A DNA stretch of 64,000 nucleotides from Desulfobacteraceae bacterium (lineage in GTDB: Bacteria; Desulfobacterota; Desulfobacteria; Desulfobacterales; JAABSP01): contig JAABSP010000005.1 of assembly GCA_011390345.1 (NCBI GenBank), positions 36,004-100,003 of the forward strand, given 5' to 3'. Below are positions 20,725 to 57,440 of the stretch, in pieces. Under the pieces are notes generated by a model. That model did not search any database and was not told the origin of the DNA. It saw nothing but the letters and a program-made list of their open reading frames with translations. How positions within the stretch are numbered: position 1 is the first letter of the stretch; each line of letters opens with the position of its first letter. The translations under genes were made by a program, and so were the position numbers.

Positions 20725-23700
20725 TCAATCCAAAAACCGCACCTCTCCATTTTCCGCTATGGTGATCCCTTCAGCAGATAGCTTTTTCAGAAGTTCTGTC
20801 ACCCTCTTTATAGGAGCCAGAAACCCTTCATATGAACGCAGCCCCCCCATATTGGCGATATTGAGCCGCTCGATGGGCGGAATCCGGATGCGGGCTCCCC
20901 CGGCCTGAACCTCGCCTGTCAGCGAGAGCAGTCCCTCCTCGATACGGATATGAACCCACCGGGGCGTTCCGGTGCGAAGCAGTCGGCGTCCGGAGACGAT
21001 CGCCTCGTTGCTCTCGTATGGATCGAGTCCATACAGAAGACGCTCCAGCGCCCTGGGGCCGATCCGGGTCATTCGCAGATCCAGTGCGATTTCCGACAGC
21101 AGCAGATCCATCCGCTCTTTCAGCGGCAGTTGCAAGGCCATTTCACCGGCCACTTCTGCAAGATCCGGATCTTCTGAACTCGAAACGGTCCCCAGAAACA
21201 GGCGGGTGTCCATGCCGGAAAAACCTACGCGGCACCGGAGGAAGAAATCATCTCCCCCTTTCAGCATGGCTATCGCTCCCATCACTGTCCCGCCCAGAAG
21301 ATCCAACTGAAAATAATCAGCATGGGGAAGGCCGTCATCAAGATTGAAATCCAGGGCCATTGGGCCGAGTCGGATGGGCAGGGGGCCCGCTGCAAAACGG
21401 GCTCCATCAAAGGAGATCGCGTGATGGGTGTTGTACCTCTGGCGCAGTTGCCCCAGGTAATTTCCCAGTCCGTTTTCATTCCCCCGGCCAGATTCCCCGG
21501 CCAGATCCTCTGATCGGAGAACCGATTCGGAAAGGGGCGGAATCTCGTTTTTTCTCTTCTTTTGACCCTCTGCGCCCTTCATCAGCAGATACCGCTTCCC
21601 CAGGTTCAGATCCGCACGCAGCCCCTGAACCGAAAGCTCTTCTCCCATTCGGATATCCATTCCATCGCTTTTGAAAATCGCTTCTCCTTTCACCTCCTGA
21701 TTCGGCGACAACTGTATGTTCATTCCCGCTCTCATCCCGCCCTCCAGCGTAATGCCCTCTGCCACCGCGCCAATATCCCCGTCCCTCTCTTTCACGATGC
21801 TGCCGGCAATCTTTCCGCCCATGTGCCGAAGCCATCCGGAGATGCCGCGGCTCTGCAATCCCCTTGCCATGCCGTAGAGGGAGAGATCCAGAGTCTGTTG
21901 GATCTTCAACTGATCCACCGTCATTGACTGGTTCATCTGAAAACTATCCAGCCCCTCCTGTCGGCCATCCATCAGGATCTCCAGCGTCAGCGGCACTTTC
22001 AGCGGTTTTCCCGGGGGCAGATCGGGAATCCGGACCCGGATGGCACTGCCGATCTCTCCTTTTCCGGAACGGCCCCTGAACTCATATCGGAGGGGATTCA
22101 ATGTCCGGATCGGGCCGAGCCGCATCGGGCCGCTCTTCTCCATCGGCAGGGATATCTCCAGATCATCGATGGTCGCGGAAAGATCGGCTTTTTCCAGAAA
22201 GGCCAGATCCTTTTTGAAATCGAGCTTCAGGGGATCGCTAAATTTCCGCATGGCCTCAGCATCCGGAATCCGGACGATCACCTCCCAGCCGAATCCGATT
22301 CCGCCCTGAAAGTTTCCGCCTTTGCTCGCCTTGTCGATCCAGTTTTTCGGCAGAGCGGAAAGGTTTATTGCTCCGGTGCCGTCTGTTCGGATTCCCGAGG
22401 CGGCCGAATTCCCCCGAGTCTGGGCCGTGAGGGAAAGTTTTACGATCTTTCCCGCAGAAAGAGCGGCCTTTGCCCCGTCGATGCGAACCGTTGAGAGATC
22501 AAAGCCGGGCAGGAGGATTCTTTTTACCCCGGCACTGAAATCGGCATCGACACTCAGGGGGCCGTAGGGAAGTGCAAAGACCGATGCGGTACCGATCTTC
22601 ACCCCGAATTGGGGCAGCCCAATCTGAATCAGGCTTTTCTCTGTCAGTTGGGCCTCAACTTTCAGGTTCTCCTGCAGGCTTTTGAGAGCGGCAAGCCCCG
22701 GAAGCTCGATCGCGGCGCAGGAGAGGGACTGATCCAACCATACCCTGCCCGTAATCCCCAGTGGCGCTTTTTCCGAGGACTCGATAGCCTCTGCCCGCAA
22801 ATGAAGATCTCTCATCGACATATTCCGCAGCCCCAGAGTTTTTCCCTGATCAACAGCTAATGATTTCAAATCCATCTGAAGAAGACTTTCCAGTTGTCGG
22901 GGAAAGAGGTCCTGCAGTTCCATCCGCATTTTCGGCACAGACAAGGAGAAGCCTTTTGCAGATATGGGCATCTTGCCCGATCGGTGTTCAGCATCGGGAA
23001 GATCGAGCCTCATTTCCAAGACTTCCACTACAGCCGCGCCTTTGGCGAGAGCGCCGGTCAGATGTATCATTTCCGCTTGAAATTGAGCCTTTTCTGAAAC
23101 TGCGATTGCCATTTGGTCCGGCAGAAGGGGCTTTATCCGGTATAGGATCTCTTTCAGGCCGAATGTCATGGGCCCCGCCACCAGATCGGCCTGGGGATCA
23201 CCGGCCCCAAGCTTTTGGATGGTCCCGGCCCATTGAATTCTCCCCTCTTCCAGAAAGGTGAGTTGTCCGTTTTCCAGAGTGAGCCGGTCTTCGCTGAAAT
23301 TGTAAGATGCATCATTGGCAAAGGTGTAAGCAAAAGGCCCCAGCGGTTTTCCCCTGGAAAAGGGGCCTGACGCGCGGAGATTTCCGCCCTGACTTTCCAT
23401 TTGGATCGCGGCTGTTTTCGGATTCAGTCCATCGAGTTCGACCCGGAATTCCGGAAGGGAAAACAGAATGAGATCGGAAAGAAGGGTCATTTCTCCGATA
23501 TTTGCGTCTAAACCGGGAATATTGAAATCGAATCCAAGCAGTTCGATGCTCCCGGGGTTTTGGGCCAATCCGCCATTTATATGGATCGAATCAACGGTAA
23601 GCATGGGTGGCGCACTGAAATGGAGGCGCATTTTCTCCGGGAAAAGTGGCCGAACCCGGTCAAGGATCTCCCCCAGATCCATTGAGACAGGGGCGATGGT

Positions 23701-25095
23701 AAAATCAGCATGGGGCGCGGTCTGTATGTCGGTGATAATGCCCTTCCATCCAATCCGGCTCCTTTCCAGAAACCGGAATTCGCCGCTTTCGATGGATGCT
23801 TTTCCCGCATCGGGATCGATCCGGCCCTCAGACTTCAGGGAAAAGGCAAAAGGCCCGAGAGACCTGTCCCCAACAGACCTGTCCCCAACAGACCTGTCCC
23901 CAACAGACCTGTCCCCGACAGACCTATCCCCAACAGAGCTGTCCCCGACAGACCTGTCCCCGACAGACCTGTCCCCGACAGACCTGTCCCCGACAGACCT
24001 ATCCCCAACAGAGCTGTCCGCGACAGAGCTATCAGCGACAGACATATCATGAATGAGCTTGCCGGAGACTCCCAGCCCCTCCCCCTTCACCTCGATTTCG
24101 AATTCCGGAGCTGCTGTTTCTCCCGCGGCCCAAGCCCAAAGGGTCAATCTGCCGAAGAAATCTGTTCCGGCCAGCGATGAGGGCAAAAAAGGAGACGCGG
24201 CCGCGGTCAGTTGGTCCAACCGGATTTCGACATCTCCCCTGAATCCGCCCCGGGAAATGCTCCCTTCCATCATCAATCGGGTTCCCGGCAGATCCCCTTT
24301 GACATCGATGACCGCACCGGCCAGGTCGAGGGCTCCGTCATCCGTAAACAGATGGTCCATTTCCGCAACCAGGGAGGGCTTTGGCAGAGCCTCTCCGTCG
24401 ATCGCGATATCTGCGCCCATTTCCATGCGGACGGTTTGGGTGAGAAGAGAGGGAAAGTCGAGCCGGAGACCCGCATCGGTGATCTCAGCCGATCTACCGG
24501 TTACCCGATCCTGCGCCAGAATCGAAATCCCGGTCAGGCGGATGCTCCCCTGCAGATCCAGGGGCAGGCGGATCGGGCCGCTCTCCTTTTCCGGTTCCGG
24601 TTCAGCCGGCTCTTCCGGCACGGTTTCCGGGATGATATCTGCGATCAGCGCTTCGATGTTGGTCGTTCCGTCCGGATTCCGGACCACCCGAAGGATTGTA
24701 TTCTGGGAATCGACTTCGAGAAAAACCCTTTCGCGGATGATATCCCACGGCCGGAGAAGAATCCGGGCTCGCTCCATCCGGAAGAGCGGAGCATCTGAAT
24801 AATCGGGATCATCCGGGATCTCCAACCCCTCGATGTTGATGCCGTCGTTCCATGTCCAGAAGATAGCATCGATCCGGACGGGCCGTTTGAGAGAGCTGGA
24901 AAGCTGCGTCTGAACGGTCTCCCGGAACCATTGGGTCGAAACCAGTGCCGGAAGGGTGATAAAGAGGCTGACAAGAAGCCCGATCCCGATAAATCCCAGG
25001 ACCAGAAGGACGGCAAATATCCGCAGGAGAATGCGCGGGACCGAGCCGCGGTTTTCGGAATCGGAAGAAGTGCGGGTCTGCGCGATGTCGGTCAT
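20725..25095 (-). CDS. large AsmA/TamB-like envelope protein (N-terminal membrane anchor, long beta-rich body)
   Basis: 1456 aa; ATG at 25095. The single N-terminal TM is ILLRIFAVLLVLGFIGIGLLVSLFITLPALV, followed by STQWFRETVQTQLSSSLKRPVRIDAIFWTW (AsmA-like start). It is co-directional with miaA upstream. Confidence 0.65.
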   Translation of the reverse strand: MTDIAQTRTSSDSENRGSVPRILLRIFAVLLVLGFIGIGLLVSLFITLPALVSTQWFRETVQTQLSSSLKRPVRIDAIFWTWNDGINIEGLEIPDDPDYSDAPLFRMERARILLRPWDIIRERVFLEVDSQNTILRVVRNPDGTTNIEALIADIIPETVPEEPAEPEPEKESGPIRLPLDLQGSIRLTGISILAQDRVTGRSAEITDAGLRLDFPSLLTQTVRMEMGADIAIDGEALPKPSLVAEMDHLFTDDGALDLAGAVIDVKGDLPGTRLMMEGSISRGGFRGDVEIRLDQLTAAASPFLPSSLAGTDFFGRLTLWAWAAGETAAPEFEIEVKGEGLGVSGKLIHDMSVADSSVADSSVGDRSVGDRSVGDRSVGDRSVGDSSVGDRSVGDRSVGDRSVGDRSVGDRSLGPFAFSLKSEGRIDPDAGKASIESGEFRFLERSRIGWKGIITDIQTAPHADFTIAPVSMDLGEILDRVRPLFPEKMRLHFSAPPMLTVDSIHINGGLAQNPGSIELLGFDFNIPGLDANIGEMTLLSDLILFSLPEFRVELDGLNPKTAAIQMESQGGNLRASGPFSRGKPLGPFAYTFANDASYNFSEDRLTLENGQLTFLEEGRIQWAGTIQKLGAGDPQADLVAGPMTFGLKEILYRIKPLLPDQMAIAVSEKAQFQAEMIHLTGALAKGAAVVEVLEMRLDLPDAEHRSGKMPISAKGFSLSVPKMRMELQDLFPRQLESLLQMDLKSLAVDQGKTLGLRNMSMRDLHLRAEAIESSEKAPLGITGRVWLDQSLSCAAIELPGLAALKSLQENLKVEAQLTEKSLIQIGLPQFGVKIGTASVFALPYGPLSVDADFSAGVKRILLPGFDLSTVRIDGAKAALSAGKIVKLSLTAQTRGNSAASGIRTDGTGAINLSALPKNWIDKASKGGNFQGGIGFGWEVIVRIPDAEAMRKFSDPLKLDFKKDLAFLEKADLSATIDDLEISLPMEKSGPMRLGPIRTLNPLRYEFRGRSGKGEIGSAIRVRIPDLPPGKPLKVPLTLEILMDGRQEGLDSFQMNQSMTVDQLKIQQTLDLSLYGMARGLQSRGISGWLRHMGGKIAGSIVKERDGDIGAVAEGITLEGGMRAGMNIQLSPNQEVKGEAIFKSDGMDIRMGEELSVQGLRADLNLGKRYLLMKGAEGQKKRKNEIPPLSESVLRSEDLAGESGRGNENGLGNYLGQLRQRYNTHHAISFDGARFAAGPLPIRLGPMALDFNLDDGLPHADYFQLDLLGGTVMGAIAMLKGGDDFFLRCRVGFSGMDTRLFLGTVSSSEDPDLAEVAGEMALQLPLKERMDLLLSEIALDLRMTRIGPRALERLLYGLDPYESNEAIVSGRRLLRTGTPRWVHIRIEEGLLSLTGEVQAGGARIRIPPIERLNIANMGGLRSYEGFLAPIKRVTELLKKLSAEGITIAENGEVRFLD
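23861..24040 (-). repeat. 12 tandem copies of a 15-bp unit (gacctgtcccc[a/g]aca) inside the AsmA-like CDS, encoding (V[G/A]D[R/S]S)n
   Basis: Counted directly: units start every 15 nt from 23861. Variant units (gacctatccccaaca, gagctgtcc...) recur in the same order, which indicates a higher-order duplication. The repeat is in frame. Confidence 0.9.
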
Positions 25096-34565: not shown

Positions 34566-34979
34566 ATGGATCTCTTTTCGGAGCTGAAATCCCTTGTCCC
34601 GGAGATCATGGCGGCCTTTCCGGCCATCGAGGTGATGTATCTCTTCGGCTCCCATGCCAGGGGAGTTGCGCGGGAGAATAGCGATGTGGATATCGGAATC
34701 TTTGTATCGGATCTGACGGACCCGCTGCTCGATCTGGAGATCGGGGTATTTCTGGAGAACCGGCTGAAAAAGCAAGTGGATGTGGTGATCCTGCAGAAGG
34801 TCTCGGCCATTCTCCAGCATGAGGTTATCAAGGAACAAAAGCGGGTTTTCGAGCGGGACCCGGAGATCCGCGCGAAGCGGGAGGTGATGACATCGCGATT
34901 ATATTTTGATGCCGTTTACGTTCAAGAACGGCGGGAAGCTTATCGGAGATGGAAGAATGGTCAATCAGAAGATCGTTAA
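34566..34979 (+). CDS. mntA: MNT-type nucleotidyltransferase (antitoxin of a HEPN/MNT pair)
   Basis: LFGSHARGVARENSDVDIGIFV contains the GSxxxG...DxD motif. Confidence 0.8.
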   Translation: MDLFSELKSLVPEIMAAFPAIEVMYLFGSHARGVARENSDVDIGIFVSDLTDPLLDLEIGVFLENRLKKQVDVVILQKVSAILQHEVIKEQKRVFERDPEIRAKREVMTSRLYFDAVYVQERREAYRRWKNGQSEDR

Positions 34980-35385
34980 CCGGCTGCTGCAGAACCTCGA
35001 AGGCTATATCCGGGATCTGAAGTCTGCAGATGATATCACCTATGAAAAATATATGAATGATATCCGCTCCCAGCGCTTTGTGGAGCGAACCCTGCAGATC
35101 GCCATCGAATGCTGTTTCGATATTTCCCATCACATCATCTCGGATGAGGGATTCCGCTCCCCGAAATCCTATGCGGAGAGCTTTACGGTGTTGGCGGAAA
35201 ACGGGATCATTCCCATGGAATCGGTGCGGGAATATCAGATGATGGCGCAATTCCGGAACAAGATCGTCCATTACTACGAGAAGATCGAGCCGGAGCAGGT
35301 GTTTGTGATCTTTCAGAAGCGCCTGGGAACTTTGGAAGGATTTGTACGGCAGGTTCGGGAATGGGCCGAAAATGCAAATCATTGA
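34957..35385 (+). CDS. hepT: HEPN/DUF86 toxin
   Basis: The start is moved to the ATG at 34957 (MVNQKIV) behind GGAGATGGAAGA. The Rx4-6H motif is FRNKIVHYY. It overlaps mntA by 23 nt. Confidence 0.85.
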   Translation: MVNQKIVNRLLQNLEGYIRDLKSADDITYEKYMNDIRSQRFVERTLQIAIECCFDISHHIISDEGFRSPKSYAESFTVLAENGIIPMESVREYQMMAQFRNKIVHYYEKIEPEQVFVIFQKRLGTLEGFVRQVREWAENANH

Positions 35386-35440: not shown

Positions 35441-36466
35441 GTGCCCCTGACCAGAATTAAACTTGAAAAGTTTACGGCTTTTGATAAACTCGATCTCGAT
35501 TTATCCCCGGGAATCAATGTCTTTATAGGCGCAAACAGTACAGGTAAAACCCATTTGATGAAACTGGCATATGCGGCCTGCGACATCAGCAAAACCAAAA
35601 CCGATTTTGCCCAAAAGCTGATACATGTCTTCATGCCTTCAGGGCGGGCAATCGGCCGGTTGGTGAAACGGCAGAAAGTCAGCACCCGATGCGCTGTTGA
35701 AATCTACAGAAACCGAAAAAAATTGAGAATCTCCTTTTCCAATCATGCCGCAGTTCCGGATTCTGCAACCGTCACCGGCAGCAAAGATTGGAGCGAAGCC
35801 CCCATCGAGAGCGTTTACATCCCTGTCAAGGAAATGCTTTCCAATTCTCCCGGCTTCCGCTCCCTCTATTCTCAGCGGGAGATTCACTTTGAAGAGGTCT
35901 ATGCAGACATTCTGGATCGGGCATTTCGGCCGGCACTGCGAGGTCCTGTAGCAAATGAAAGAAAAGAATTACTGAAGGATTTGCAGAAAAACATGGAGGG
36001 GAAGGTAGCCATCAAGGATGAAGAATTTTTTCTGCGGAACAAACAGGGAAATCTTGAGTTCTCACTGCTTGCGGAGGGAATCCGGAAACTCGGCCTGTTG
36101 TGGCTGCTGATTCAAAACGGAACATTGCTGAAAGGCTCTGTCCTTTTCTGGGATGAACCGGAAACCAATTTAAATCCGAAACTCTTCGGCCCCCTCTTGG
36201 AAATCCTTCTCAAACTCCAGCGGATGGGGGTTCAGGTATTTCTTGCCACCCATGATTATGTGATATTGAAGGAATTGGATCTGAGAAAAGAGCCCGAAGA
36301 TGATGTTTTTTTCTATTCTCTTTTTCGGGATAAAGAGAGCGGACAGATTCAATATCATAGGACTGATGAATATCTGGCAATCGATCCCAATGCCATTCAG
36401 GATACCTTTCTGGATCTTTTCGATCGGGATGTAAAACGAGACATGGTGCTTTCAGCCAATGGATAA
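35441..36466 (+). CDS. stand-alone ABC-type (AAA_21-like) ATPase
   Basis: The GTG at 35441 follows GGGAGGTGA. Walker A GANSTGKTH, signature-like LAEGIRKLG, Walker B VLFWDEPE, H-loop LATHD. Confidence 0.75.
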   Translation: MPLTRIKLEKFTAFDKLDLDLSPGINVFIGANSTGKTHLMKLAYAACDISKTKTDFAQKLIHVFMPSGRAIGRLVKRQKVSTRCAVEIYRNRKKLRISFSNHAAVPDSATVTGSKDWSEAPIESVYIPVKEMLSNSPGFRSLYSQREIHFEEVYADILDRAFRPALRGPVANERKELLKDLQKNMEGKVAIKDEEFFLRNKQGNLEFSLLAEGIRKLGLLWLLIQNGTLLKGSVLFWDEPETNLNPKLFGPLLEILLKLQRMGVQVFLATHDYVILKELDLRKEPEDDVFFYSLFRDKESGQIQYHRTDEYLAIDPNAIQDTFLDLFDRDVKRDMVLSANG

Positions 36467-36548
36467 AAAAAGGGGTAAGACACATAACCATCGTTGATTT
36501 TGAAACAGCAGATAAAATGGGACTTCCGGTTAAGCGGTTGAGTTGAAA

Positions 36549-39473
36549 ATGGAAAAACGCGCACAGGAAATCCTGAAAACCGTCTTCGGCTTCGAAAGTT
36601 TTCACCCGCACCAGGAAAAGACCATCCGAAACGTCCTCTCCGGCAGAGACACCCTCGGGGTCATGCCCACGGGCGGCGGAAAATCCCTCTGTTATCAGAT
36701 CCCCGCACTGATCTTTGACGGGCTGACAGTGGTGATCTCCCCGCTGATCTCCCTGATGCAGGATCAGATCCAGGGTCTTTTGGAGAACGGAATCCGGGCA
36801 GCGGTCTTGAACAGTTCTCTGCCGCTGCCGGAATACCGGGAAAATGCGGAGATGGTGCGAAACGGTGAAGCCAGACTTCTCTATCTCGCCCCTGAAACCC
36901 TGATGAAGCCGAACGTCATCGACCTGCTGGGCAACGTCCGTGTGAGCCTGGTGGCCGTGGATGAGGCCCACTGCGTCTCTGCATGGGGGCATGACTTCCG
37001 GCCCGAATACCGGCAGCTCATCCGGGTTCGACATGCGTTTCCGGGCGCGGTATGGCTTGCGCTGACCGCGACCGCAACCCCCCGGGTGCGGGAGGATATC
37101 ATGGCTGCACTCGGGTTTGCCGAGGATAACCTGATCCTTGCCGGATTCGACCGGCCCAACCTCTTCATCGACATCACGCCCAAATTCGAGCCGGAAAAGC
37201 AGTTGATCCGGTTCGTCAACCGATTCGAAGGGGCATCCGGGATCGTCTATTGCCAAAGCCGAAAGCGTGCGGACAGGCTGGCGCAGATTCTCTCCAAAGC
37301 GGAAATCCCCGCCCTCCCCTACCATGCCGGCCTGGATGGAAAACTTCGTCAGCACCATCAGCGCCTCTTTGCGACCGACGATGTCCGGGTGATCACGGCA
37401 ACTGTGGCCTTTGGCATGGGCATCGACAAATCCGATGTCCGGTTTGTGGTACATTACGATCTGCCCAAGGATATCGAAAGCTACTATCAGGAGATCGGCC
37501 GCGCTGGCAGAGACGGCCTTGCGGCCCACTGTCGGCTGATGTTCGACCCCGGCGATGCTGCAAAGATCCGCTACTTCTTCCAGGAGAAATCGGATCAGGA
37601 GAGGATCGAGGCCGAAAGACGATTGCAGGCCATCGTGGATCTGGCCACGGCTCGGGCCTGCCGCCGCACGGGGCTGCTCCGCTATTTCGGAGAGAGGGTC
37701 CCAGAAGAGTCCTGCGGAGGATGCGATATCTGCCGGAAAGTCGAAACGGACGGGACAGACCTCACGATTCCTGCGCAGAAATTTCTCTCCTGCGTCTTTC
37801 GGACCCGCCAGATCTTCGGCGCGATCCATGTATCGGACGTGCTCATGGGGGGAAATACCGCAAAGATCCGCCAGTTCGAGCATGACAAACTCTCCACCTA
37901 CGGCATCGGCACGGAACTGGACCGCCGGGGATGGCGCATCCTCGGGCTCCATCTGATTCAGCAGGGGTATCTGGATCTCCACCCGAAACATCGCTCCCTC
38001 AAGCTGACCCCTGAAGCCTGGCCGATTCTTCGCAAAGAAAAGGGCTTTTTCGCAGAAATGGAGATCGCAGAGAATCCAGGCGCGAAAAGCGATCCCCAAT
38101 TAGAGGAATCATACGACACAAGACTCTTCGAGATCCTGCGGAAAAAGCGTAAAGAGCTGGCCGATGGCGCAGATGTGCCGCCCTTTGTAATCTTCGGAGA
38201 CAGAAGCCTGCGGGATATGGCGATCCGCTTTCCCCAGGGACTGGAAAGCTTTTCAGCCATTCACGGCGTCGGAAGAGCAAAGCTGGAGAAGTATGGGGAA
38301 ATCTTTGTGCCCCTGATTCAGGAGTATTGCAAAGAGAAGGGGATTTCGGAAAACGAGACGGCCCGCGCGGCCCCGATCTCCAGACCCGAGAGGTCATCGG
38401 GAAAAGCGGCCCCCGGCTCCCGCTGTGTCGCGGTGGGAGATGCCTTTAACGCTGGTGAGGCCATCAACGAGCTTACGGAAAAGTATAGTGTAAAGCCGCA
38501 GACGATCCTCAATCATCTGGAGAATTATCTGCTGGCCGGCCGCACCCTTTCTGCTGAACGGCTCCGGCAGTATGCGCAGTTGCCCCATGATCAGAACCGG
38601 GCCGTTCTGGAATTTTTTTCCGAAAACGGCCCCGAACGGCTCAAGCCCGCGTTTGTCCATTTCAACGAAGCCATCCCCTATGATGATCTTCGCTATCTGC
38701 GGATTATCTTCTATGCGGAAAACGGAATTCCGGAACCTGAAACAGCAGAACAAGAGGCAGAGATGCCCGGGATCTGCCGGATCGTCTGTCTGGCAAACTC
38801 CCGGAAGTACGGGGGCCGCTGTATTGCTGGCAAAAGACTGAACCGCGATTCCCCGGGTTCCTGGGTGCGGCCTGTTTCCAGAAGCCCCAGGGGAGAGCTG
38901 GATCTGAAAACCATGACAATGGAAGACGGGGAAATCCCTGCACTGGGAGACATCCTTTCCATTCCCGCGGGCTCTTCTGCGCCCCACCCGTATCAGCCGG
39001 AGAACAGGTTTGCGCTGCCGGAAATCTGGCAGCGTGAAGGAAGGTTTCCGGGGCTGCGGCTGGACCGACTCTGCGACCATCCCGATACCCTCTGGGAAAA
39101 CGGCCACAGCGGATGGAACGGCATCAATGACCGAATTCCCGCGGAGACGGTATACGAGACAGTTGAGCAGAGCCTTTTCTTCGTGAGGGTATACCGCCTT
39201 TCCGCGCATGTGGTCAAGGCCCCGACCGGGCTGAAGCATATCCGGACAGGCTTTGTCTATAACAACGAGGAATATCTGCTGACGGCGACCGACCCGGTCT
39301 TTGAAGCGGAATTCATGGCCTGTGATTTCGGAATCTATCCGCTGCACGAGGAAAAGGTCTACATCTGCGCCAGCCTGGGCGAGCCCTACGAGGATTACTG
39401 TTACAAGCTGGCGGCCGGGATTCTGCGGTACGAAGATGTGAAAACGGACAGCAAAGAGATCGAGGATTCATGA
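36549..39473 (+). CDS. recQ: RecQ-family helicase with HRDC, an HTH-like region and an extra C-terminal module of about 235 aa containing several Cys
   Basis: The helicase core reads VMPTGGGKSLCYQIPAL, VAVDEAHCVSAWGHDFRPEY, TVAFGMGIDKSDVRFVVHYDLPK, QEIGRAGRDG, and a zinc-finger-like CRR...CGGCDIC. HRDC-like: LRKKRKELADGADVPPFVIFGDRSLRDM. The C-terminal module runs from about 38763: ICRIVCLANSRKYGGRCIAGK...WVRPVS. The ATG at 36549 is preferred to the TTG at 36543. Confidence 0.85.
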   Translation: MEKRAQEILKTVFGFESFHPHQEKTIRNVLSGRDTLGVMPTGGGKSLCYQIPALIFDGLTVVISPLISLMQDQIQGLLENGIRAAVLNSSLPLPEYRENAEMVRNGEARLLYLAPETLMKPNVIDLLGNVRVSLVAVDEAHCVSAWGHDFRPEYRQLIRVRHAFPGAVWLALTATATPRVREDIMAALGFAEDNLILAGFDRPNLFIDITPKFEPEKQLIRFVNRFEGASGIVYCQSRKRADRLAQILSKAEIPALPYHAGLDGKLRQHHQRLFATDDVRVITATVAFGMGIDKSDVRFVVHYDLPKDIESYYQEIGRAGRDGLAAHCRLMFDPGDAAKIRYFFQEKSDQERIEAERRLQAIVDLATARACRRTGLLRYFGERVPEESCGGCDICRKVETDGTDLTIPAQKFLSCVFRTRQIFGAIHVSDVLMGGNTAKIRQFEHDKLSTYGIGTELDRRGWRILGLHLIQQGYLDLHPKHRSLKLTPEAWPILRKEKGFFAEMEIAENPGAKSDPQLEESYDTRLFEILRKKRKELADGADVPPFVIFGDRSLRDMAIRFPQGLESFSAIHGVGRAKLEKYGEIFVPLIQEYCKEKGISENETARAAPISRPERSSGKAAPGSRCVAVGDAFNAGEAINELTEKYSVKPQTILNHLENYLLAGRTLSAERLRQYAQLPHDQNRAVLEFFSENGPERLKPAFVHFNEAIPYDDLRYLRIIFYAENGIPEPETAEQEAEMPGICRIVCLANSRKYGGRCIAGKRLNRDSPGSWVRPVSRSPRGELDLKTMTMEDGEIPALGDILSIPAGSSAPHPYQPENRFALPEIWQREGRFPGLRLDRLCDHPDTLWENGHSGWNGINDRIPAETVYETVEQSLFFVRVYRLSAHVVKAPTGLKHIRTGFVYNNEEYLLTATDPVFEAEFMACDFGIYPLHEEKVYICASLGEPYEDYCYKLAAGILRYEDVKTDSKEIEDS

Positions 39474-40081
39474 AGCTCTACACCATCGGCCATTCCAACC
39501 ATCCCATCGAGGATTTTCTCGAACTCCTTCAAAAACACCGCATCGAGGCCATCTGCGATGTGCGCTCCAGCCCCTACAGCCGTTACAACCCGCAGTACAA
39601 CCGGGAGAACCTGATCCCGGAACTGAAAAAGGCCGGATTAAAGTATGTCTATCTGGGAAAAGAGCTGGGGCCCCGCTCCGAAGATCCGGCCTGTTATGAG
39701 GATGGAAGGGTCAGCTATGCTCAGCTTGCGCGGACAGCGCTCTTCGGTGAGGGGCTGAACCGATTGCGGGAGGGAATGGCGCGATACCGGGTCTCACTGC
39801 TCTGCTCGGAAAAGGAGCCGATGACATGCCACCGGGCCATTCTGGTCTGCCGGGAACTGCGGAAAGAGGTCGATATCGATCACATTTTGGAGGACGGAGA
39901 AATTTTACCGCAGAAAGAGCTGGAGGAAAATTTGCTGCAGATGCATGATCTGAAACAGATGTCTCTTTTTGAACCCGATATGGACCCGGTAGAGAAAGCC
40001 TATGACATGCAGGCCCGGAAGATCGCGTATGCGCCCAAACCGGATATTGAAGAGGAAAATCCAGAAGATGGCTACAATTAA
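39470..40081 (+). CDS. DUF488-family protein (copy 1)
   Basis: MKLYTIGHSNHPIEDFLELLQKHRIEAICDVRSSPYSR...LLCSEKEPMTCHRAILV. ATGA overlap with the recQ stop. Confidence 0.85.
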   Translation: MKLYTIGHSNHPIEDFLELLQKHRIEAICDVRSSPYSRYNPQYNRENLIPELKKAGLKYVYLGKELGPRSEDPACYEDGRVSYAQLARTALFGEGLNRLREGMARYRVSLLCSEKEPMTCHRAILVCRELRKEVDIDHILEDGEILPQKELEENLLQMHDLKQMSLFEPDMDPVEKAYDMQARKIAYAPKPDIEEENPEDGYN

Positions 40082-40514
40082 ACTCTACACCATCGGCTTT
40101 ACACAGAAATCTGCACAGGAATTCTTCGACCTGCTGAAATCCGCCAGGGTCCGGCGCATCGTGGATGTCCGCCTCAATGTCACCTCCCAACTGGCCGGAT
40201 TTGCCAAGCAGAAGGATCTGAAGTATTTCCTGGAAGCGATTCTGGGGGCCGACTATCTGCACTTGAAGAATGCCGCGCCCGAAAAGACGCTGCTGGAGGG
40301 GTACAAGAAAAAGGAGATATCCTGGGCCGAGTACGAAAAAGCATATCGGAAGCTGCTGGAAACACGGAAGGCATCGGAATGGCTTCCGGAAACCCTTTTT
40401 TCCGGGGATTGTTTTTTGTGCAGCGAACATGAGCCGGATCAGTGCCATCGTCGGCTGCTGGCTGAGTATTTTGCCGAGATTATTGGGAAAGTGGAAATCC
40501 ATCATCTGGTCTGA
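40068..40514 (+). CDS. DUF488-family protein (copy 2, divergent paralogue)
   Basis: The ATG at 40068 gives MATIKLYTIGFTQKSAQEFFDLLKSARVRRIVDVRLN...FLCSEHEPDQCHRRLLA. It overlaps copy 1 by 14 nt. Confidence 0.85.
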   Translation: MATIKLYTIGFTQKSAQEFFDLLKSARVRRIVDVRLNVTSQLAGFAKQKDLKYFLEAILGADYLHLKNAAPEKTLLEGYKKKEISWAEYEKAYRKLLETRKASEWLPETLFSGDCFLCSEHEPDQCHRRLLAEYFAEIIGKVEIHHLV

Positions 40515-47525: not shown

Positions 47526-49217
47526 ATGAAATCTACAATCCATCGAACAACAGTGGCCATTCTCTGCGCACTTCTCTTTTCACTTGCATTTGCCGCAACG
47601 ATTGGGGCACAGCCTTCGACACCGGGCGATCGGTCCCAAAAGGCGATCCAGACCCTCAAGGAGATCAACCAGTCCATCGCGCTGCTGCAGAGCGAGCTGA
47701 AGCAGAAGGAGGCCGAGTACCGCAGAGCCGAAACCGATGACCGGAAGGAAAAACTTGCAAAAGAGATCCGGGAGATCAACGCACGGCTCGATGCCAACCT
47801 CCGGGAGTTCGAATCGATTGCATCTGGCATGGATGTAGCCGATTTCTCCGGGGAAACGGATCGGATCTTCAACTTCAAGGAGGAGATCCAGGAGATCATC
47901 CGCCCCCTGGTCGAAGAGCTGAAGAACGTCACCCGCCGGCCCCGGGAGATCGAACGGCTCCGGAAGGAGATCGACTTTTACGAGAAAAGCCTTCCGGCAG
48001 TTCAGGCGGCCATTGCCAATATCCAAAGCGTAAGGGAGGCGGCCGATGAGACGGCCGGTGAGAGGGCGCTGACCGCACATCTGGCTGAGATCGAAGAGGA
48101 GTGGCAGAACAGAGAAAAGGAGATCATAAGGCAGATCTCCCGGCTGCAGTACCAGCTCGACCAGAAGATGGAGAGCCGGCAGTCGCTATTTCGAGCCCTG
48201 CAGAGCGGCGCAAGGGAATTCTTCCAGACCCGGGGGCTGAACCTGCTGCTGGCCCTTGTCACCTTCTTTGCCATCTTTCTGCTGCTCCGGTTCCTCTACT
48301 GGCGGGTCTACCGGATCAGCTACAGAAAACGGCCCGAAACCCGCTCCCTCTATAACCGCCTCTTCCAGACCGCGTATCAGTTCTTCACCTTTATGGTGGC
48401 CATCGGCGCTGCCCTTTTTCTGCTCTATGCCTTTGGCGACTGGATGCTGTTGAGCATCGCTCTGATCCTGCTGGTGGGCGTTGCCTGGACCGCAAGACAC
48501 GCCTTTTCCATCTTCTGGGAGCAGTCCAAACTCCTGCTCAACATCGGCACGGTGCGGGAGAAGGAGCGGATCATCTACAACGGGATTCCGTGGCAGGTGG
48601 ATGCGCTCAACATCCAGACCAACCTGATCAACCCGGAGCTGAAAGGGGGGCTGATCCGCCTTCCCCTCAAGAGCCTCATCGGGCTGCAGTCCAGGCCCTG
48701 TGCCCCCGAAGAACTCTGGTTCCCCACCCGGGAGGGGGATTATGTGCTGCTGGGGGACGGAACCTACGGCAGGGTGCTGATGCAGACTCCGGAGATGGTG
48801 ACCATGGATGTGGTGGGGGGCTGCCGCAAGACCTACCCCACGACTTCGTTTATGGATCAAAACCCGGTCAACCTCTCCATCAACAATTTCGGGGTCTCCA
48901 CTGTTTTCGGCATCGACTACGCGCATCAGGCCGAGATCACCGATGCGGTTCCGGAAAAGCTGAAGGCCGTCATCGAAGAGGGCTTGGCGGAAGAGGCATA
49001 CGGAGAACACCTGGTGAGCCTGCTGGTGCAGTTCAAGGAGGCCGGAGCCTCTTCGCTGGATATCCTGATCTTTGCCGGTTTTGCCGGAGAGGCGGCAGCC
49101 AACTATTACCCGATCGCCAGAGCCCTCCAGCGGCTGACGGTGGAAGCCTGCAACCAGTACGGATGGGGAATTCCCTTTCCGCAGATTACGGTGCATGGGG
49201 TAGATGGGACAAACTGA
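47526..49217 (+). CDS. MscS-family mechanosensitive channel with a signal peptide and a long N-terminal coiled-coil
   Basis: 563 aa. Signal AILCALLFSLAFAATIGA and coiled-coil LQSELKQKEAEYRRAETDDRKEKLAKEIREINARL. The MscS beta-domain pattern is GDYVLLGDGTYGRVLMQTPEMVTMD...NPVNLS. Confidence 0.8.
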   Translation: MKSTIHRTTVAILCALLFSLAFAATIGAQPSTPGDRSQKAIQTLKEINQSIALLQSELKQKEAEYRRAETDDRKEKLAKEIREINARLDANLREFESIASGMDVADFSGETDRIFNFKEEIQEIIRPLVEELKNVTRRPREIERLRKEIDFYEKSLPAVQAAIANIQSVREAADETAGERALTAHLAEIEEEWQNREKEIIRQISRLQYQLDQKMESRQSLFRALQSGAREFFQTRGLNLLLALVTFFAIFLLLRFLYWRVYRISYRKRPETRSLYNRLFQTAYQFFTFMVAIGAALFLLYAFGDWMLLSIALILLVGVAWTARHAFSIFWEQSKLLLNIGTVREKERIIYNGIPWQVDALNIQTNLINPELKGGLIRLPLKSLIGLQSRPCAPEELWFPTREGDYVLLGDGTYGRVLMQTPEMVTMDVVGGCRKTYPTTSFMDQNPVNLSINNFGVSTVFGIDYAHQAEITDAVPEKLKAVIEEGLAEEAYGEHLVSLLVQFKEAGASSLDILIFAGFAGEAAANYYPIARALQRLTVEACNQYGWGIPFPQITVHGVDGTN

Positions 49218-53187: not shown

Positions 53188-55911
53188 TCATGACTGCCTT
53201 GCCGATCCGGCAAAGCCCGTTGATTGCGACGCGTTTTGCCAATGTCTCTTTCCCTTCCTGGAGGGTCTCGGCCGTCCTTTCCAAAGGCTGAAATCGAGTT
53301 CATCTGCAGCAGACGGTTCACAGATAAAATTTCCCTGTACTTCATGACACCTGTTTTTTTTGAGGAAGATGAACTGATCCTTCTGCTCCACACATTCAGC
53401 GATCGTCTTGATCTTCAAATTCCGGCTGAGATCGATGATCGATTTTACAATGGCGCTGTCATCATTATTGTAAATGTTGTGGATCAAAGAGCAGTCGATC
53501 TTGATGAAATCGAGCGGCACCTTTTTCAGAAGGTTCAGGGGAAGCGCGCCGGTTCCATAATCGTCCAGCGCGATCTTTACCCCAAGGGCCTTGATCTTTC
53601 CGAGAACCGACGCTGCAGCATCAGGATTATTCACCAGCACATCTTCTGTAATATCCAGGATCAGTTTTTCCCCGTCAAAACCTGTATCCCTGAGCACCTC
53701 CCGTACTATATCTACAATATTTTCGCTGATTAACTGTTTTGAAGATAGATTGACCGAGACATAGAGATCCTCATATCCATGCCGCTGCCAGCGGAGGGTC
53801 TGAATGCAGGCTTTATATAGAACCCAGCGGCTGATCTTTGAGATCAGATCCAGCTTCTCCGTCAGCGAGATGAACTGTCCTGGCAGAATGAGATTTCCCG
53901 GCGACTTCTCCCATCGGATAAAGGCTTCATTTCCGACAATGCGGCCGCTGTGGATATCAATGATGGGCTGGTAGTGAAGATAAAACTGCTCTTTTTCCAA
54001 AGCCCCGCGAAGACTCTCCTCGATTTTCAGCTTATTCTCAAAAACCTCTCCCAACTTATCCGTGTAGAGTTCATATGTGTTTTTTCCGCTATCCTTGGCC
54101 CGATACATGGCGATATCGGCATATCTTTTCAGATCAGCAGAATTGTCTGTATCTGTAGGATAGATCGCGATACCGATGCTGGTGCTGGTTTGAACCGTAT
54201 TCCCTTCCAATTGGATCGATTCCCCAATAGATTGGATGATGCGCCTGGCCACATCGATGGCATCCTGCCATCCGTTTTGGATCTCCGGAAGGATCAGGGC
54301 AAACTCATCGCCGCCGATTCTGGCAATGGTATCCTCATCCCTGCAGGATGATTTCAGCCGATCCGCTACCTCTTTCAGCAACTGATCTCCGATATGGTGC
54401 CCCATTGTATCATTGATCGATTTAAAATTGTCCAGATCCAGAAAAAGCAGAGATAATTTTTCATCTTTCCGCTTGGCATGGGAAATAGCTTTTTCCAGCC
54501 GGTCATCAAAGAGATTTCGATTGTATAGACCCGTAAGATCGTCATGGTACGCTTGATCTTTTAAATCCGCCTCGATCCTTTTGGCATCCGATATATCATG
54601 AAAAATCTCGACAAAATGGGTGGCTTCGCCATTTTTATCGGAGATGGCGGTGATGGAGGTTCTTTGGGGATAAGATTCGCCGTTTTTGCGTCGGTTCCAG
54701 ACCTCACCGATCCATACTCCTTCATAGTTTACCGTATCCCAGATACTCTCGAAGAAAGATGCCTCATGCTTTCCGGATTTTAGCAGTTCGGGGGTATGGC
54801 CGATCACCTCTTCAGGCAGATAGCCGGTGATCTTCGTAAAGGCCGGATTAACCTGCTGAATAATTCCTTTTTTATCAGTGATGATGATTCCTTCAGCGAC
54901 ATTTTCATAGACGTTGGCGCAGAGTTTCAGCTCTTCCTCGTAGCCGACTTGCTCGGTTATATCCCTGCCATACATAAACAGCGAACTATCATCCGAAAAC
55001 GAAGAGACTTGGAAAGCATATACTTTCTTTCCGATTTTCAGCTTTGCTTCGGGAGTGAATCCGCAAAGAAAATAATCGATCAGTTTTTGATACCAGTACA
55101 GGGGCAGCATATCTCCTACTTGAGTACCCCACTGGCGAAGTAAATCAGAGGCCGCGGGATTGGAATAGAGAAGCCTTCCATCCAGCGTGGACTGCAGCAT
55201 CGGATTTGGATTCTCTTTTGGAAAATTTGTCAGATTTTGGATTTTTGCTTCCGATTTTTTTCCACATGTAATGTCCACAGCCATGATCGCGCCCAGTCTT
55301 CTTTCATCGGGGAGTTTTCCCAAAGAGAGCGCGGATAATTCCCAGTAACGAATCCTTTTTGATGCAGTACGAACCTGTAAAACCCCTTCTTTAAGGCATT
55401 CATCCGCGTCCAGTATGGCGTCGATATGATTTTCAACATCCTCGGGGCTTTCTGAAAATGCTCTTGCGGCCCATTCATGATAGGTGGGGATACCATCGAG
55501 ATCGTATCCGGACAACTCTGTCCACATTTTGTTGATCGTCTGGATCTCTCCATCCTCTGCAAATACCATTATCGGAAATGGCGCATTTTCAATAATCTGA
55601 TCAAGCTGCCAGTTTCTTTCCCAAAGGGATTTTTGGGTCATTATATCCGCAGCTTCATCTTTGATGGAAAGCTTTCCTGGCGCTTTTCTTTCCCTTGTAT
55701 TCACTCTTCCATAAAACAACAGCGAGAATAGAACAGCATAACAAAAAATTGCGAAAATCGAAAATAGATATATGTCATTTTGGAGAATGTCAGAGATGAA
55801 CAGGTTAAAGAATCCTCCAATTTGAAAATGACTGGATACGAAAAAGAAAAGAATAAAGCAGAAACCAGCCTTTATCAGAATATTCTTTTTGTAATTTATA
55901 TATTTTATCAT
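53188..55911 (-). CDS. membrane-anchored PAS(x3)-GGDEF-EAL c-di-GMP turnover protein
   Basis: 907 aa. RDEDTIARIGGDEFALILP (RxxD plus GGDEF). The EAL domain starts GNEAFIRW and also has DDYGTG and IKIDCSLI. Codon usage is visibly AT-rich. Confidence 0.85.
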   Translation of the reverse strand: MIKYINYKKNILIKAGFCFILFFFVSSHFQIGGFFNLFISDILQNDIYLFSIFAIFCYAVLFSLLFYGRVNTRERKAPGKLSIKDEAADIMTQKSLWERNWQLDQIIENAPFPIMVFAEDGEIQTINKMWTELSGYDLDGIPTYHEWAARAFSESPEDVENHIDAILDADECLKEGVLQVRTASKRIRYWELSALSLGKLPDERRLGAIMAVDITCGKKSEAKIQNLTNFPKENPNPMLQSTLDGRLLYSNPAASDLLRQWGTQVGDMLPLYWYQKLIDYFLCGFTPEAKLKIGKKVYAFQVSSFSDDSSLFMYGRDITEQVGYEEELKLCANVYENVAEGIIITDKKGIIQQVNPAFTKITGYLPEEVIGHTPELLKSGKHEASFFESIWDTVNYEGVWIGEVWNRRKNGESYPQRTSITAISDKNGEATHFVEIFHDISDAKRIEADLKDQAYHDDLTGLYNRNLFDDRLEKAISHAKRKDEKLSLLFLDLDNFKSINDTMGHHIGDQLLKEVADRLKSSCRDEDTIARIGGDEFALILPEIQNGWQDAIDVARRIIQSIGESIQLEGNTVQTSTSIGIAIYPTDTDNSADLKRYADIAMYRAKDSGKNTYELYTDKLGEVFENKLKIEESLRGALEKEQFYLHYQPIIDIHSGRIVGNEAFIRWEKSPGNLILPGQFISLTEKLDLISKISRWVLYKACIQTLRWQRHGYEDLYVSVNLSSKQLISENIVDIVREVLRDTGFDGEKLILDITEDVLVNNPDAAASVLGKIKALGVKIALDDYGTGALPLNLLKKVPLDFIKIDCSLIHNIYNNDDSAIVKSIIDLSRNLKIKTIAECVEQKDQFIFLKKNRCHEVQGNFICEPSAADELDFSLWKGRPRPSRKGKRHWQNASQSTGFAGSARQS

Positions 55912-56280
55912 TTTTAATACCTCATGTTTGTATGGCCTGTAAAAGCATCTTACAAAAACCTACCCCGAATATTATAAAAAACATAATATATCTTCTAAAA
56001 GAAAAAGAACATCGGGTAAAATACCCATATTGATAAATGGAATGTACATTTTTATTTTAACCATATTCCCGACAGTATATAATTTACGAATAGGATCTAT
56101 CATTAAAACTTATATTTATAAAATATTTATCATTGCTGATTATAATTCTGCCTATTGCATCCTATCCTGCTCGTGAAGTAGGGTGACACCCCATAGTATC
56201 TGACAACTGGTAAGATTACTTTATAAGTCACTGCCCGGGAAAAAGAACCGGACGGTAAAAAGGAAAAGGAGATAACGCTA

Positions 56281-56520
56281 ATGAAGAAACCTCAGATTAA
56301 AATTTATATAAAGCTTTTCATTCTGGCAATCGGATTCAGTCTTACAATTGTAAAGACCTCGCTTGCTCAGAGTATTCTTTCAGATTTTGGATGGAAGCTT
56401 TCCAGTGGGATGTTGGATTCTTCAGAACCTGTCGCAATGCTTATTGTGGGATTCTCACTATTATTTGCGGCATCCATTGGAAGAGATATGTATTTCAATC
56501 CAAAATCTGAAAGAAAATAG
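56281..56520 (+). CDS. 79-aa secreted mini-protein with a PEP-CTERM-like tail
   Basis: Follows AAGGAGA. Signal MKKPQIKIYIKLFILAIGFSLTIVKTSLAQS. The tail is SSEPVAMLIVGFSLLFAASIGRD (EP, hydrophobic helix, Arg). Confidence 0.45.
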   Translation: MKKPQIKIYIKLFILAIGFSLTIVKTSLAQSILSDFGWKLSSGMLDSSEPVAMLIVGFSLLFAASIGRDMYFNPKSERK

Positions 56521-56658
56521 GAAGAGCGGAAGAATTTTGGCAATAGCTTAATATTCGGCAGTAAGGAGGTGATTTTATGAATGTGAAATAAATAGAATCA
56601 GTCTATGGAAAAGAAAGCAAAATCGGAATTAACGTAAAGAATAAGAAAAGGCATAAAA

Positions 56659-57384
56659 ATGAAAAAAATTATTACAATATCGGTTATAGGTCTATTGTCC
56701 GTCTTTTTAATCTACGGAAATGCATTGGCAATCCATAACTTCGATTTCGGCGGTGTCATAAATTTTGCGAATAATGGAGGTGGCGACGAATTCGCTGAAA
56801 CATTGGTATTCGAAAGAGGCTTTATACCGACTTTCAATACGGCAGACGATGCCCTCTTCAATGATACAGGAGGAGCGCTCCCACCATATGGTGATCGCGA
56901 TAATGAAGAATATATCGAATTTTCAGATCTGATTCTTGATCCAAGCGATTACGTATCCGGGGAGTACTACTCCTTTTTAGATGATGGATACCAGCTTGAA
57001 CTTTTCGACCACACAGGTGATCGCATCTTTTATGGAGATCTTTTTGTAGACAAATTAATAATTTTTGGGCAAATCGGCCATATCAATCCCTATTTCAATG
57101 CAAATCTGACAAATATTGTTGCCGATGACAGTTACATAATGGGCTCCTCGACGATTGCAGATGGCTTTATCAATAGGACCGAGGGATCTATTCAGTTCAG
57201 CACACAATTCGGCAATGCTGTAGTCATAGATGCAATTGAAAATGGAATAAAGCCGGAAAACACTCTTACCTATTCCGGTACTGCCGCTGCTGCTGCCGCA
57301 CCGGTTCCCGAGCCCGCAACCATTATTCTTCTCGGAATGGGTCTGGCCGGACTGGCGCTCTACAGAAGACGCCAGAACTCATAA
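56659..57384 (+). CDS. PEP-CTERM sorting-domain protein
   Basis: Signal MKKIITISVIGLLSVFLIYGNALA. The C-terminus PVPEPATIILLGMGLAGLALYRRRQNS is a textbook PEP-CTERM anchor. Confidence 0.8.
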   Translation: MKKIITISVIGLLSVFLIYGNALAIHNFDFGGVINFANNGGGDEFAETLVFERGFIPTFNTADDALFNDTGGALPPYGDRDNEEYIEFSDLILDPSDYVSGEYYSFLDDGYQLELFDHTGDRIFYGDLFVDKLIIFGQIGHINPYFNANLTNIVADDSYIMGSSTIADGFINRTEGSIQFSTQFGNAVVIDAIENGIKPENTLTYSGTAAAAAAPVPEPATIILLGMGLAGLALYRRRQNS

Positions 57385-57440
57385 GGTAAAAATCATCCAT
57401 ATGGTAGCCGATGCGAAACTGCATCGGTGAATAACAAATG

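Follow-up and report, generated by a model that had tools for sequence, protein, structure and literature searches.

Gene layout of the locus

This analysis concerns a cassette of three genes, a RecQ helicase gene with an appended DuOB domain followed by two DUF488 genes, in a stretch of 64,000 nucleotides ("the window") from a Desulfobacteraceae bacterium (GenBank assembly GCA_011390345.1, contig JAABSP010000005.1, positions 36,004 to 100,003 of the forward strand). An earlier note on this DNA, made from the letters only, had described the cassette as part of a module of four co-directional genes which starts with an ABC-type (ATP-binding cassette) ATPase and sits directly after an MNT/HEPN toxin-antitoxin pair. 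The four open reading frames (ORFs) with their coordinates and overlaps were borne out by ORF calls and by public contigs of identical sequence, on which the genes were called with the same coordinates and lengths, those of the MNT/HepT pair included. Pfam likewise agreed on the families, i.e. the toxin-antitoxin pair upstream, an AAA_21-like ATPase, RecQ and two DUF488 proteins. What changes is the extent of the module. We are highly confident that the real unit consists of three genes, RecQ-HTH_40-DuOB, DUF488-1 and DUF488-2, and that the ATPase lies outside it. The parts of this unit are listed here in window coordinates, with lengths in amino acids (aa):

36549..39473, plus strand: RecQ-HTH_40-DuOB in one gene, 974 aa plus stop; first gene of the module (ORF, Pfam)
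36549..38339, plus strand: RecQ portion, aa 1-597, with helicase core, zinc-binding domain, RQC and HRDC (Pfam, TIGR01389)
38442..38696, plus strand: HTH_40 domain, aa 632-716 (Pfam PF14493, E 4.7e-09)
38778..39422, plus strand: DuOB (dual OB-fold) domain, aa 744-958 (Pfam PF22557, E 7.5e-53)
39470..40081, plus strand: DUF488 copy 1, 203 aa, PDC-M45B type (Pfam PF04343, E 6.4e-25)
40068..40514, plus strand: DUF488 copy 2, 148 aa, PDC-M45C type (Pfam PF04343, E 2.5e-23)

The stop of the RecQ gene and the start of DUF488 copy 1 overlap as ATGA (39470-39473), and copies 1 and 2 overlap by 14 nt (40068-40081). The RecQ gene starts with the ATG at 36549, with its frame also open from a TTG at 36543, and the frame of copy 2 is open already from 40002. 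An identical 974-aa RecQ-HTH_40-DuOB protein is on public record (P0121), and the arrangement of the four genes is conserved at 100% on 11 metagenome contigs of the same population.

The RecQ portion

Pfam assigned DEAD, Helicase_C, RecQ_Zn_bind, RQC and HRDC to the RecQ protein, all above their cut-offs, in addition to HTH_40 and DuOB, and its translation contains the Walker A motif (GGGKS), DEAH and four zinc-binding cysteines. The NCBIfam equivalog model for recQ, TIGR01389, gave 699.1 bits against a cut-off of 640.2. The protein thus has the full domain set, the catalytic motifs and the above-cut-off score of a canonical long-form RecQ, from which it differs in an extra DuOB of ~240 aa and in the translational coupling to two DUF488 genes. 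HTH_40 is the usual C-terminal domain of long RecQ proteins and also ends the plain proteins of 720-735 aa. The nearest relatives of the window protein, which are 68-77% identical to it, also carry DuOB as a fusion. In the range of 48-56% identity, plain RecQ-HTH_40 proteins of 720-735 aa and further fusions occur side by side, and the window protein is 53-55% identical to the plain form. In a neighbour-joining tree, fused and plain RecQ proteins are interleaved. Judged by these comparisons, the fusion is in effect a normal long RecQ plus an appended DuOB, and we see no sign of the accelerated divergence that would be expected of a defence paralogue. There is no second RecQ-like ORF within the 64-kb window.

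PADLOC also reported strong matches to "DpdF" and "PsyrT", which are explained by the helicase core that DpdF of the Dpd system and PsyrT of the PsyrTA system have in common with the RecQ of the window as members of the RecQ family. Membership in Dpd was rejected, with 182.5 bits for the DpdF equivalog NF041063 against a cut-off of 550. The same holds for PsyrTA, as the PsyrT match is limited to the helicase core (aa 2-362). Family scans of the locus and its neighbours flagged no other Dpd or PsyrA-type proteins.

Conservation and fusions of the three-gene module

One genome per species was scanned with a DuOB alignment, which yielded 83 loci, 79 of them from other species, and the ORFs of these loci were then searched with the proteins of the window (loci and proteins are given as L and P numbers where they have to be told apart). 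DuOB, a DUF488-1-type and a DUF488-2-type gene follow each other in this order on one strand in 61 of the 79 other-species loci, 36 of them with a RecQ-fused and 25 with a standalone DuOB. Most loci that lack the full order are interrupted by contig ends, and in two archaeal loci the DUF488 genes are located upstream. The median gap is 19 nt between the DuOB stop and the start of the DUF488-1 domain, and 0 nt between the DUF488-1 stop and the start of the DUF488-2 domain. The RecQ-HTH_40-DuOB architecture occurs in 47 of the 83 related loci, and within the Desulfobacterota the fused form is spread over Desulfobacteraceae, Syntrophobacteraceae, Syntrophaceae, Smithellaceae, Desulfarculales and Desulfatiglandales. 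Complete chromosomes with the fusion include CP070746.1 and OY759599.1. Clustering of 639 flanking ORFs from the 83 loci gave no family that was present in more than five loci, and no other conserved neighbour.

Fusions were also found in other arrangements. On a 6-Mb contig (L103, 4950-8766), two DUF488 genes are followed by a DuOB-RecQ gene in which DuOB is N-terminal. In the neighbour-joining tree, 31 RecQ proteins of 915-1031 aa that are extended at the N-terminus by more than 200 aa form a single clade; precomputed Pfam annotation lists DuOB for most of them, and some are named Candidatus Poribacteria. P0145 is a 950-aa DUF488-RecQ-HTH_40 fusion (L101:6001-8853) whose DUF488 is of the copy-1 type, and in L064 (1777-3030) DuOB and DUF488-1 are contained within one ORF. 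Such a variety of fusion geometries would be difficult to account for if the proteins did not work together. Co-inheritance, tight coupling and repeated fusion argue that RecQ-DuOB, DUF488-1 and DUF488-2 very probably act as one complex, the formation of which we infer from these patterns. The earlier note had likewise treated the extended RecQ and the DUF488 pair as a coupled unit, and the neighbourhood check (the 61 loci above) and the independent fusions support this.

The alternative that the RecQ is ordinary and that DuOB and the DUF488 proteins are functionally unrelated neighbours, fused by accident, could draw on the fact that most DuOB proteins stand alone (~220-235 aa), and that the standalone loci have no RecQ-like ORF within the ~9 kb inspected. 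We consider it extremely unlikely in view of three RecQ fusion geometries plus the DuOB-DUF488 fusion, the presence of the fused form across many Desulfobacterota families and the conserved translational coupling.

L001 at first sight looked like a true two-gene "RecQ | DuOB" locus. This candidate was rejected, as its split is an in-frame TAA (3824-3826) inside HTH_40. An in-frame TAA is also present inside the helicase core of the fused RecQ gene of L021 (5915-5917). These stops account for the apparently separate gene calls; since L001 and L021 are metagenome-assembled genome or metagenome contigs, the stops are either assembly errors or marks of pseudogenes.

The ATPase gene and the relic of its partner

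Three features precede the RecQ gene and lie outside the module:

34566..35385, plus strand: MNT/HepT toxin-antitoxin pair, two overlapping genes at 34566-34979 and 34957-35385 (Pfam)
35441..36466, plus strand: ABC-type ATPase of the HEC-02A family, 341 aa, GTG start (ORF, PADLOC)
36472..36546, plus strand: relic of a HEC-02B-type partner gene, last ~22 codons plus stop (tblastn, translation)

Pfam classified the ATPase as AAA_21/AAA_15, and the PADLOC model HEC-02A (PDLC04213) matched it with E 5.1e-131 over positions 1-334 of 337, i.e. at full length. HEC-02 consists of an ABC ATPase and a small NERD-like protein, both of which are required for defence (Payne et al. 2024, bioRxiv 10.1101/2024.01.29.577857). 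The PADLOC labels of this system look swapped for two further models: "HEC-02B" PDLC04146 matches the ATPase (E 4e-67), and "HEC-02A" PDLC04145 weakly matches the small partner. Homologues of the ATPase are numerous (5538 matches); the top 120 are 69-82% identical, and those that are named come from several phyla. In all five contexts examined, the homologue is followed by an overlapping gene for a protein of 168-183 aa, which matches HEC-02B where tested with PADLOC, and the pair is found inside BREX-like islands or alone.

The window differs from these HEC-02 loci in that the partner gene has been deleted except for 22 codons. When the partner proteins of L104 (181 aa) and L106 (183 aa) were used as tblastn queries, they matched 36472-36537 with E-values of 5e-6 and 6e-5 and identities of 68% and 55%, to partner aa 158-179 and 160-181, respectively. 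The translation of the relic reads GVRHITIVDFETADKMGLPVKRLS, followed by a stop. As only the last 22 partner codons are left, ~155 codons have been deleted. The relic was detected only with the closer partners of L104 and L106, and with the partners of L092, L096, L097, L104 and L106 as queries no HEC-02B was found elsewhere in the 64-kb window.

At related loci the ATPase is missing. A homologue adjoins the module in none of the 83 loci, one of which has a copy ~7 kb away. The gene calls of the closest relative, with 77% identity in RecQ, do not include an ATPase either, and a gene on the opposite strand lies upstream there. The GC content at third codon positions (GC3) is 0.50 for the ATPase and 0.69 for RecQ. 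Because of its absence at related loci, the coupled partner elsewhere, the relic here and the differing composition, we interpret the ATPase as the remaining gene of a HEC-02-type defence cassette of two genes that has decayed, and not as a partner of the helicase. In this scenario, a HEC-02-type cassette would have been inserted together with MNT/HepT just upstream of recQ and would then have decayed.

The stop of the relic is located 2 nt ahead of the RecQ ATG, an arrangement in which recQ is probably reliant on upstream transcription now. A promoter and terminator scan gave five promoter-like sites where 3.9 would be expected, and it showed no convincing terminator in the interval from the ATPase gene to the RecQ gene. 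Despite the deletion of the partner, the ATPase ORF is intact, and it is 100% identical on the 11 metagenome contigs, which derive from several sequencing runs (L084-L091). This leaves two readings: a recent deletion, or an ATPase that is still of some use by itself.

From the four-gene picture of the earlier note, the RecQ and DUF488 genes thus stay, and the ATPase drops out on account of the loci without it, the partner relic and GC3. A single Gabija-like defence module of four genes, in which the ABC ATPase would sense or power and RecQ would be its partner, would be consistent with the co-directional genes and their short gaps, with an arrangement kept in 11 metagenome contigs and with the intact ATPase ORF. 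Against it stand the absence of the ATPase from 82 of the 83 related loci and from the closest relative, the HEC-02B-type partner of its own that every examined ATPase homologue has, the relic of such a partner in the window and the different base composition of the ATPase, and we regard such a module as very improbable. The likeness to Gabija, which the earlier note had drawn as well, is that of an ABC-type ATPase beside a helicase, and it does not hold up further. GajA models match only the first ~40-50 residues of the 341-aa ATPase, in which the Pfam scan found no TOPRIM domain; the helicase is of the RecQ type (superfamily 2) rather than the UvrD type (superfamily 1), with no GajB model among the best 25 of its 42 PADLOC matches; and the pairing of ATPase and helicase is not conserved in the 83 related loci.

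The DuOB domain

The C-terminal part of the RecQ protein had been described as a Cys-containing domain that could not be assigned. The profile search identified it as Pfam DuOB (PF22557), and the PADLOC model PDC-M45A (PDLC04653) matched aa 741-964 with E 6.9e-60 over model positions 3-228 of 230. An AlphaFold2 model of the domain (pLDDT 92.7) has two beta-barrels. Foldseek placed HIN-200 domains (p202, IFI16, AIM2) first, followed by CTC1, SSB and RPA. A library of viral structures gave only weak OB-fold matches, including one that is ribosomal protein S1-like.

An alignment of 18 sequences that are ~40% identical has 34 invariant columns, among them C747, C758 and many charged residues. This number of invariant columns suggests that the domain has a specific ligand, or even catalyses a reaction. 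We also considered DuOB as an SRAP-like enzyme with an N-terminal cysteine and rejected this candidate, as the cysteine is not at position 2.

The family is sparse. It comprises 4073 clusters at 50% identity among 1.84 billion representatives; its best-scoring members are mostly standalone, and standalone proteins of ~220-235 aa are the majority form. Viral carriage appears to be rare: there were no matches in 50,697 phage records and only nine in 2.9 million IMG/VR contigs.

The DUF488 pair

PADLOC identified copy 1 as PDC-M45B (E 5.9e-76) and copy 2 as PDC-M45C (E 1.1e-56). Copy 2 also passes the Pfam model PF22751, DUF488-N3a ("active DUF488-N3" subclade), with 38.5 bits against a cut-off of 27. 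Copy 1 contains the motifs TIGHS (5-9), DVR (30-32), C112-S-E114, P117 and C120-H-R122 and has a conserved C-terminal extension; the corresponding motifs of copy 2 are TIGFT (8-12), DVR (33-35), C118-S-E120, P123 and C126-H-R128. Conservation was judged across 74 homologues, and the polar residues that are invariant in the family (T-I-G-[HF]-[ST], D-V-R and C-[SA]-E..P..C-H-R) are all kept in both copies. From its motifs, neither copy looks like a dead paralogue.

Sequence searches of the PDB with both copies and with a profile of 15 sequences gave no related solved structure. In a Foldseek search with an AlphaFold2 model of DUF488, phosphatases of the PTP, DUSP and PRL types recurred, all with E > 0.1 and hence non-significant. 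Burroughs and Aravind reportedly placed DUF488 within the rhodanese-phosphatase superfamily in the abstract of a paper of 2023. The weak fold matches of the model are consistent with this placement and do not prove it. The Pfam families DuOB (PF22557), DUF488-N3a (PF22751) and DUF488-N3i presumably go back to the same 2023 work, judging by the style of their names.

DUF488 is a large family for which our literature search found no function. According to one preprint there is no literature on its E. coli member YeaO; the same preprint reports a skew of CRISPR spacer acquisition in the deletion mutant. Our full-text searches, whose coverage did not extend to Burroughs and Aravind 2023, found no paper that describes a DuOB/DUF488 cassette.

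Genomic context: repair or defence

The combination of genes had been regarded as not belonging to a described system. This has to be amended, as DuOB followed by two DUF488 genes is catalogued in PADLOC as the candidate PDC-M45 A/B/C, and Pfam models of DuOB and DUF488-N3a exist. The cassette of the window has the same three families in the same order as PDC-M45, which is a candidate by prediction: the PDCs are 145 predicted candidates, which trace back to genes located inside BREX, DISARM or type I restriction-modification systems (Payne et al. 2024, bioRxiv 10.1101/2024.01.29.577857). It differs in protein A. The M45A models (188-318 positions) cover DuOB alone, and instead of a standalone protein of ~230 aa the window has DuOB as the C-terminal domain of a full RecQ of 974 aa. 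A further difference is that RecQ-fused loci are mostly found in housekeeping surroundings. The cassette is thus a RecQ-fused variant of the catalogued but uncharacterised PDC-M45.

Among the 100 ORFs that flank the RecQ-fused loci most closely, metabolic and transport genes prevail, and no defence family occurs more than two to three times. A canonical RecQ in combination with housekeeping flanks favours a role in repair, and the plasmid copies described below together with the PADLOC listing favour defence. For the RecQ-fused form we see the choice between the two as nearly evenly poised, with a slight lean to repair.

DuOB cassettes were found on 20 plasmids, including plasmids of 4-36 kb. 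On the 25.5-kb IncFII plasmid NZ_CP056428.1 from Klebsiella (L099:6004-7667), DuOB, DUF488 and DUF4326 genes lie beside a NotI-family restriction-modification system, a RelE toxin-antitoxin pair and ParA, and the 10-kb Acinetobacter plasmid NZ_CP139284.1 (L100:6010-7698) carries a cassette of the same three families. On both plasmids DUF4326 stands in for the second DUF488.

Such plasmids are part of what speaks for the alternative that the three-gene cassette is a RecQ-fused PDC-M45 with an anti-phage or anti-plasmid function. RecQ-DuOB would be loaded where invading DNA has free ends or is single-stranded, and the DUF488 pair would modify or block these ends and thereby stop replication or packaging. 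Besides the plasmid-borne cassettes next to NotI-type restriction-modification and RelE toxin-antitoxin genes, this alternative has in its favour the full-length matches of all three PDC-M45 models, the sparseness of the DuOB family, the few defence-like neighbours of standalone loci and, in the window, MNT/HepT and the HEC-02 remnant. It is weakened by the fact that PDC-M45 is a candidate by prediction only, by a RecQ that scores above the equivalog cut-off for the housekeeping protein and does not evolve fast, by the mostly metabolic and transport genes around fused loci, and by the ordinary chromosomal content of the rest of the window. We consider the defence function the main alternative, though less likely than not.

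Proposed mechanism

Substrate, chemistry and biological role of the module are what we infer from the evidence above. As the best explanation overall we propose a RecQ-coupled three-gene module next to an unrelated ATPase remnant, and we give this explanation in its entirety about an even chance of being right. RecQ would unwind DNA in the 3'->5' direction, and DuOB, whose model resembles tandem-OB DNA binders, would hold on to the single strand or DNA end produced in this way. The two DUF488 proteins would act as a heterodimer and carry out cysteine-based phosphate or sugar-phosphate chemistry at the DNA terminus, by which a blocking group is removed or added. This assignment of phosphate chemistry at DNA termini to the DUF488 pair is tentative, and we would put it at somewhat below an even chance. 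In this genome, the module would most likely be an accessory that cleans or marks DNA ends in RecQ-dependent repair and recombination.

A number of observations weigh against this proposal. On the structural side, the Foldseek matches of DuOB have TM-scores of just 0.3-0.4, and DuOB with its many invariant polar residues could itself be catalytic. The superfamily assignment of DUF488 leans in part on a model that was built from an alignment of three sequences and has a pLDDT of 67, with non-significant fold matches. On the side of genomic context, the only catalogue entry for the cassette, PDC-M45, labels it as a phage-defence candidate, and our flank surveys are raw counts without statistical control. 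The standalone or DUF4326-containing versions on small plasmids that adjoin restriction-modification and toxin-antitoxin genes have to be counted here as well. Standalone loci have somewhat more defence-like neighbours (AAA_21, HEC-01A, RmrA, mad3), and the module of the window itself has a toxin-antitoxin pair and the remnant of a defence system as neighbours.

The presence of DUF4326, a sister family, in place of the second DUF488 on plasmids bears on a further alternative, namely that DuOB and DUF488 act on RNA ends or on small molecules derived from nucleotides, such as ADP-ribose derivatives, with RecQ either delivering the activity or being regulated by it. For DUF4326, the authors who discovered the family predict a role in the processing of terminal phosphates at the ribose moiety of ADP-ribose (PMC9503650). 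Moreover, OB folds also bind RNA, and the viral fold search gave the match to a ribosomal protein S1-like structure mentioned above. However, every fusion partner that was found is a RecQ-type DNA enzyme with RQC and HRDC, the best structural matches of DuOB are the DNA-binding HIN and CTC1 folds, and the flanks show no recurrent Macro, NADAR or Nudix genes. We thus judge an action on RNA or ADP-ribose derivatives to be improbable.

Going back to the proposed RecQ-coupled module for DNA ends, its most far-reaching version is that DuOB and the DUF488 pair constitute a new, cysteine-dependent machine for the modification of DNA termini, which would attach a covalent group to the DNA ends or single-stranded DNA supplied by the helicase, or strip such a group from them. 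We put this forward as a speculative and on balance doubtful idea, and we are just as reserved about the corollary that such a machine has been bolted onto the main RecQ several times independently. If true, it would be the first biochemical function for the DUF488 family, E. coli YeaO included, and it would point to an as yet unknown step of RecQ-dependent repair or of the immunity to foreign DNA that is linear or replicating. In any case, the repeated, independent fusions to a canonical RecQ lead to the bench-testable hypothesis that DNA termini are processed in a helicase-coupled manner, and the fused protein offers a natural entry to the biochemistry in a single polypeptide. With the ATPase read as a HEC-02 remnant and the four-gene picture corrected in this way, experiments should be designed around three genes. 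The locus also calls for caution, as not every match to PDC-M45 should be equated with "defence".

Other features of the window

In the toxin-antitoxin pair upstream of the ATPase, Pfam recognized Polbeta/NTP_transf_2 (MNT, E 3e-19) and HepT-like (E 2.5e-32) domains. The MNT gene starts 4 nt past the stop of a TolC-like OEP gene, and an MNT/HepT pair adjoins no other DuOB locus among the 83 related loci. The other genes of the window are those of an ordinary chromosome, e.g. Trk potassium uptake, sigma-54 regulators, histidine kinases and GGDEF/EAL proteins. Two large ORFs, 20725-25095 on the minus strand (1456 aa) and 47526-49217 on the plus strand (563 aa), had no Pfam match at E <= 1e-5. 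A patch of low GC content at 54000-57400 (0.36-0.46, compared with ~0.56 elsewhere) holds a gene for a PEP-CTERM protein (56659-57384) and adjoins a PAS-GGDEF-EAL gene (53188-55911).

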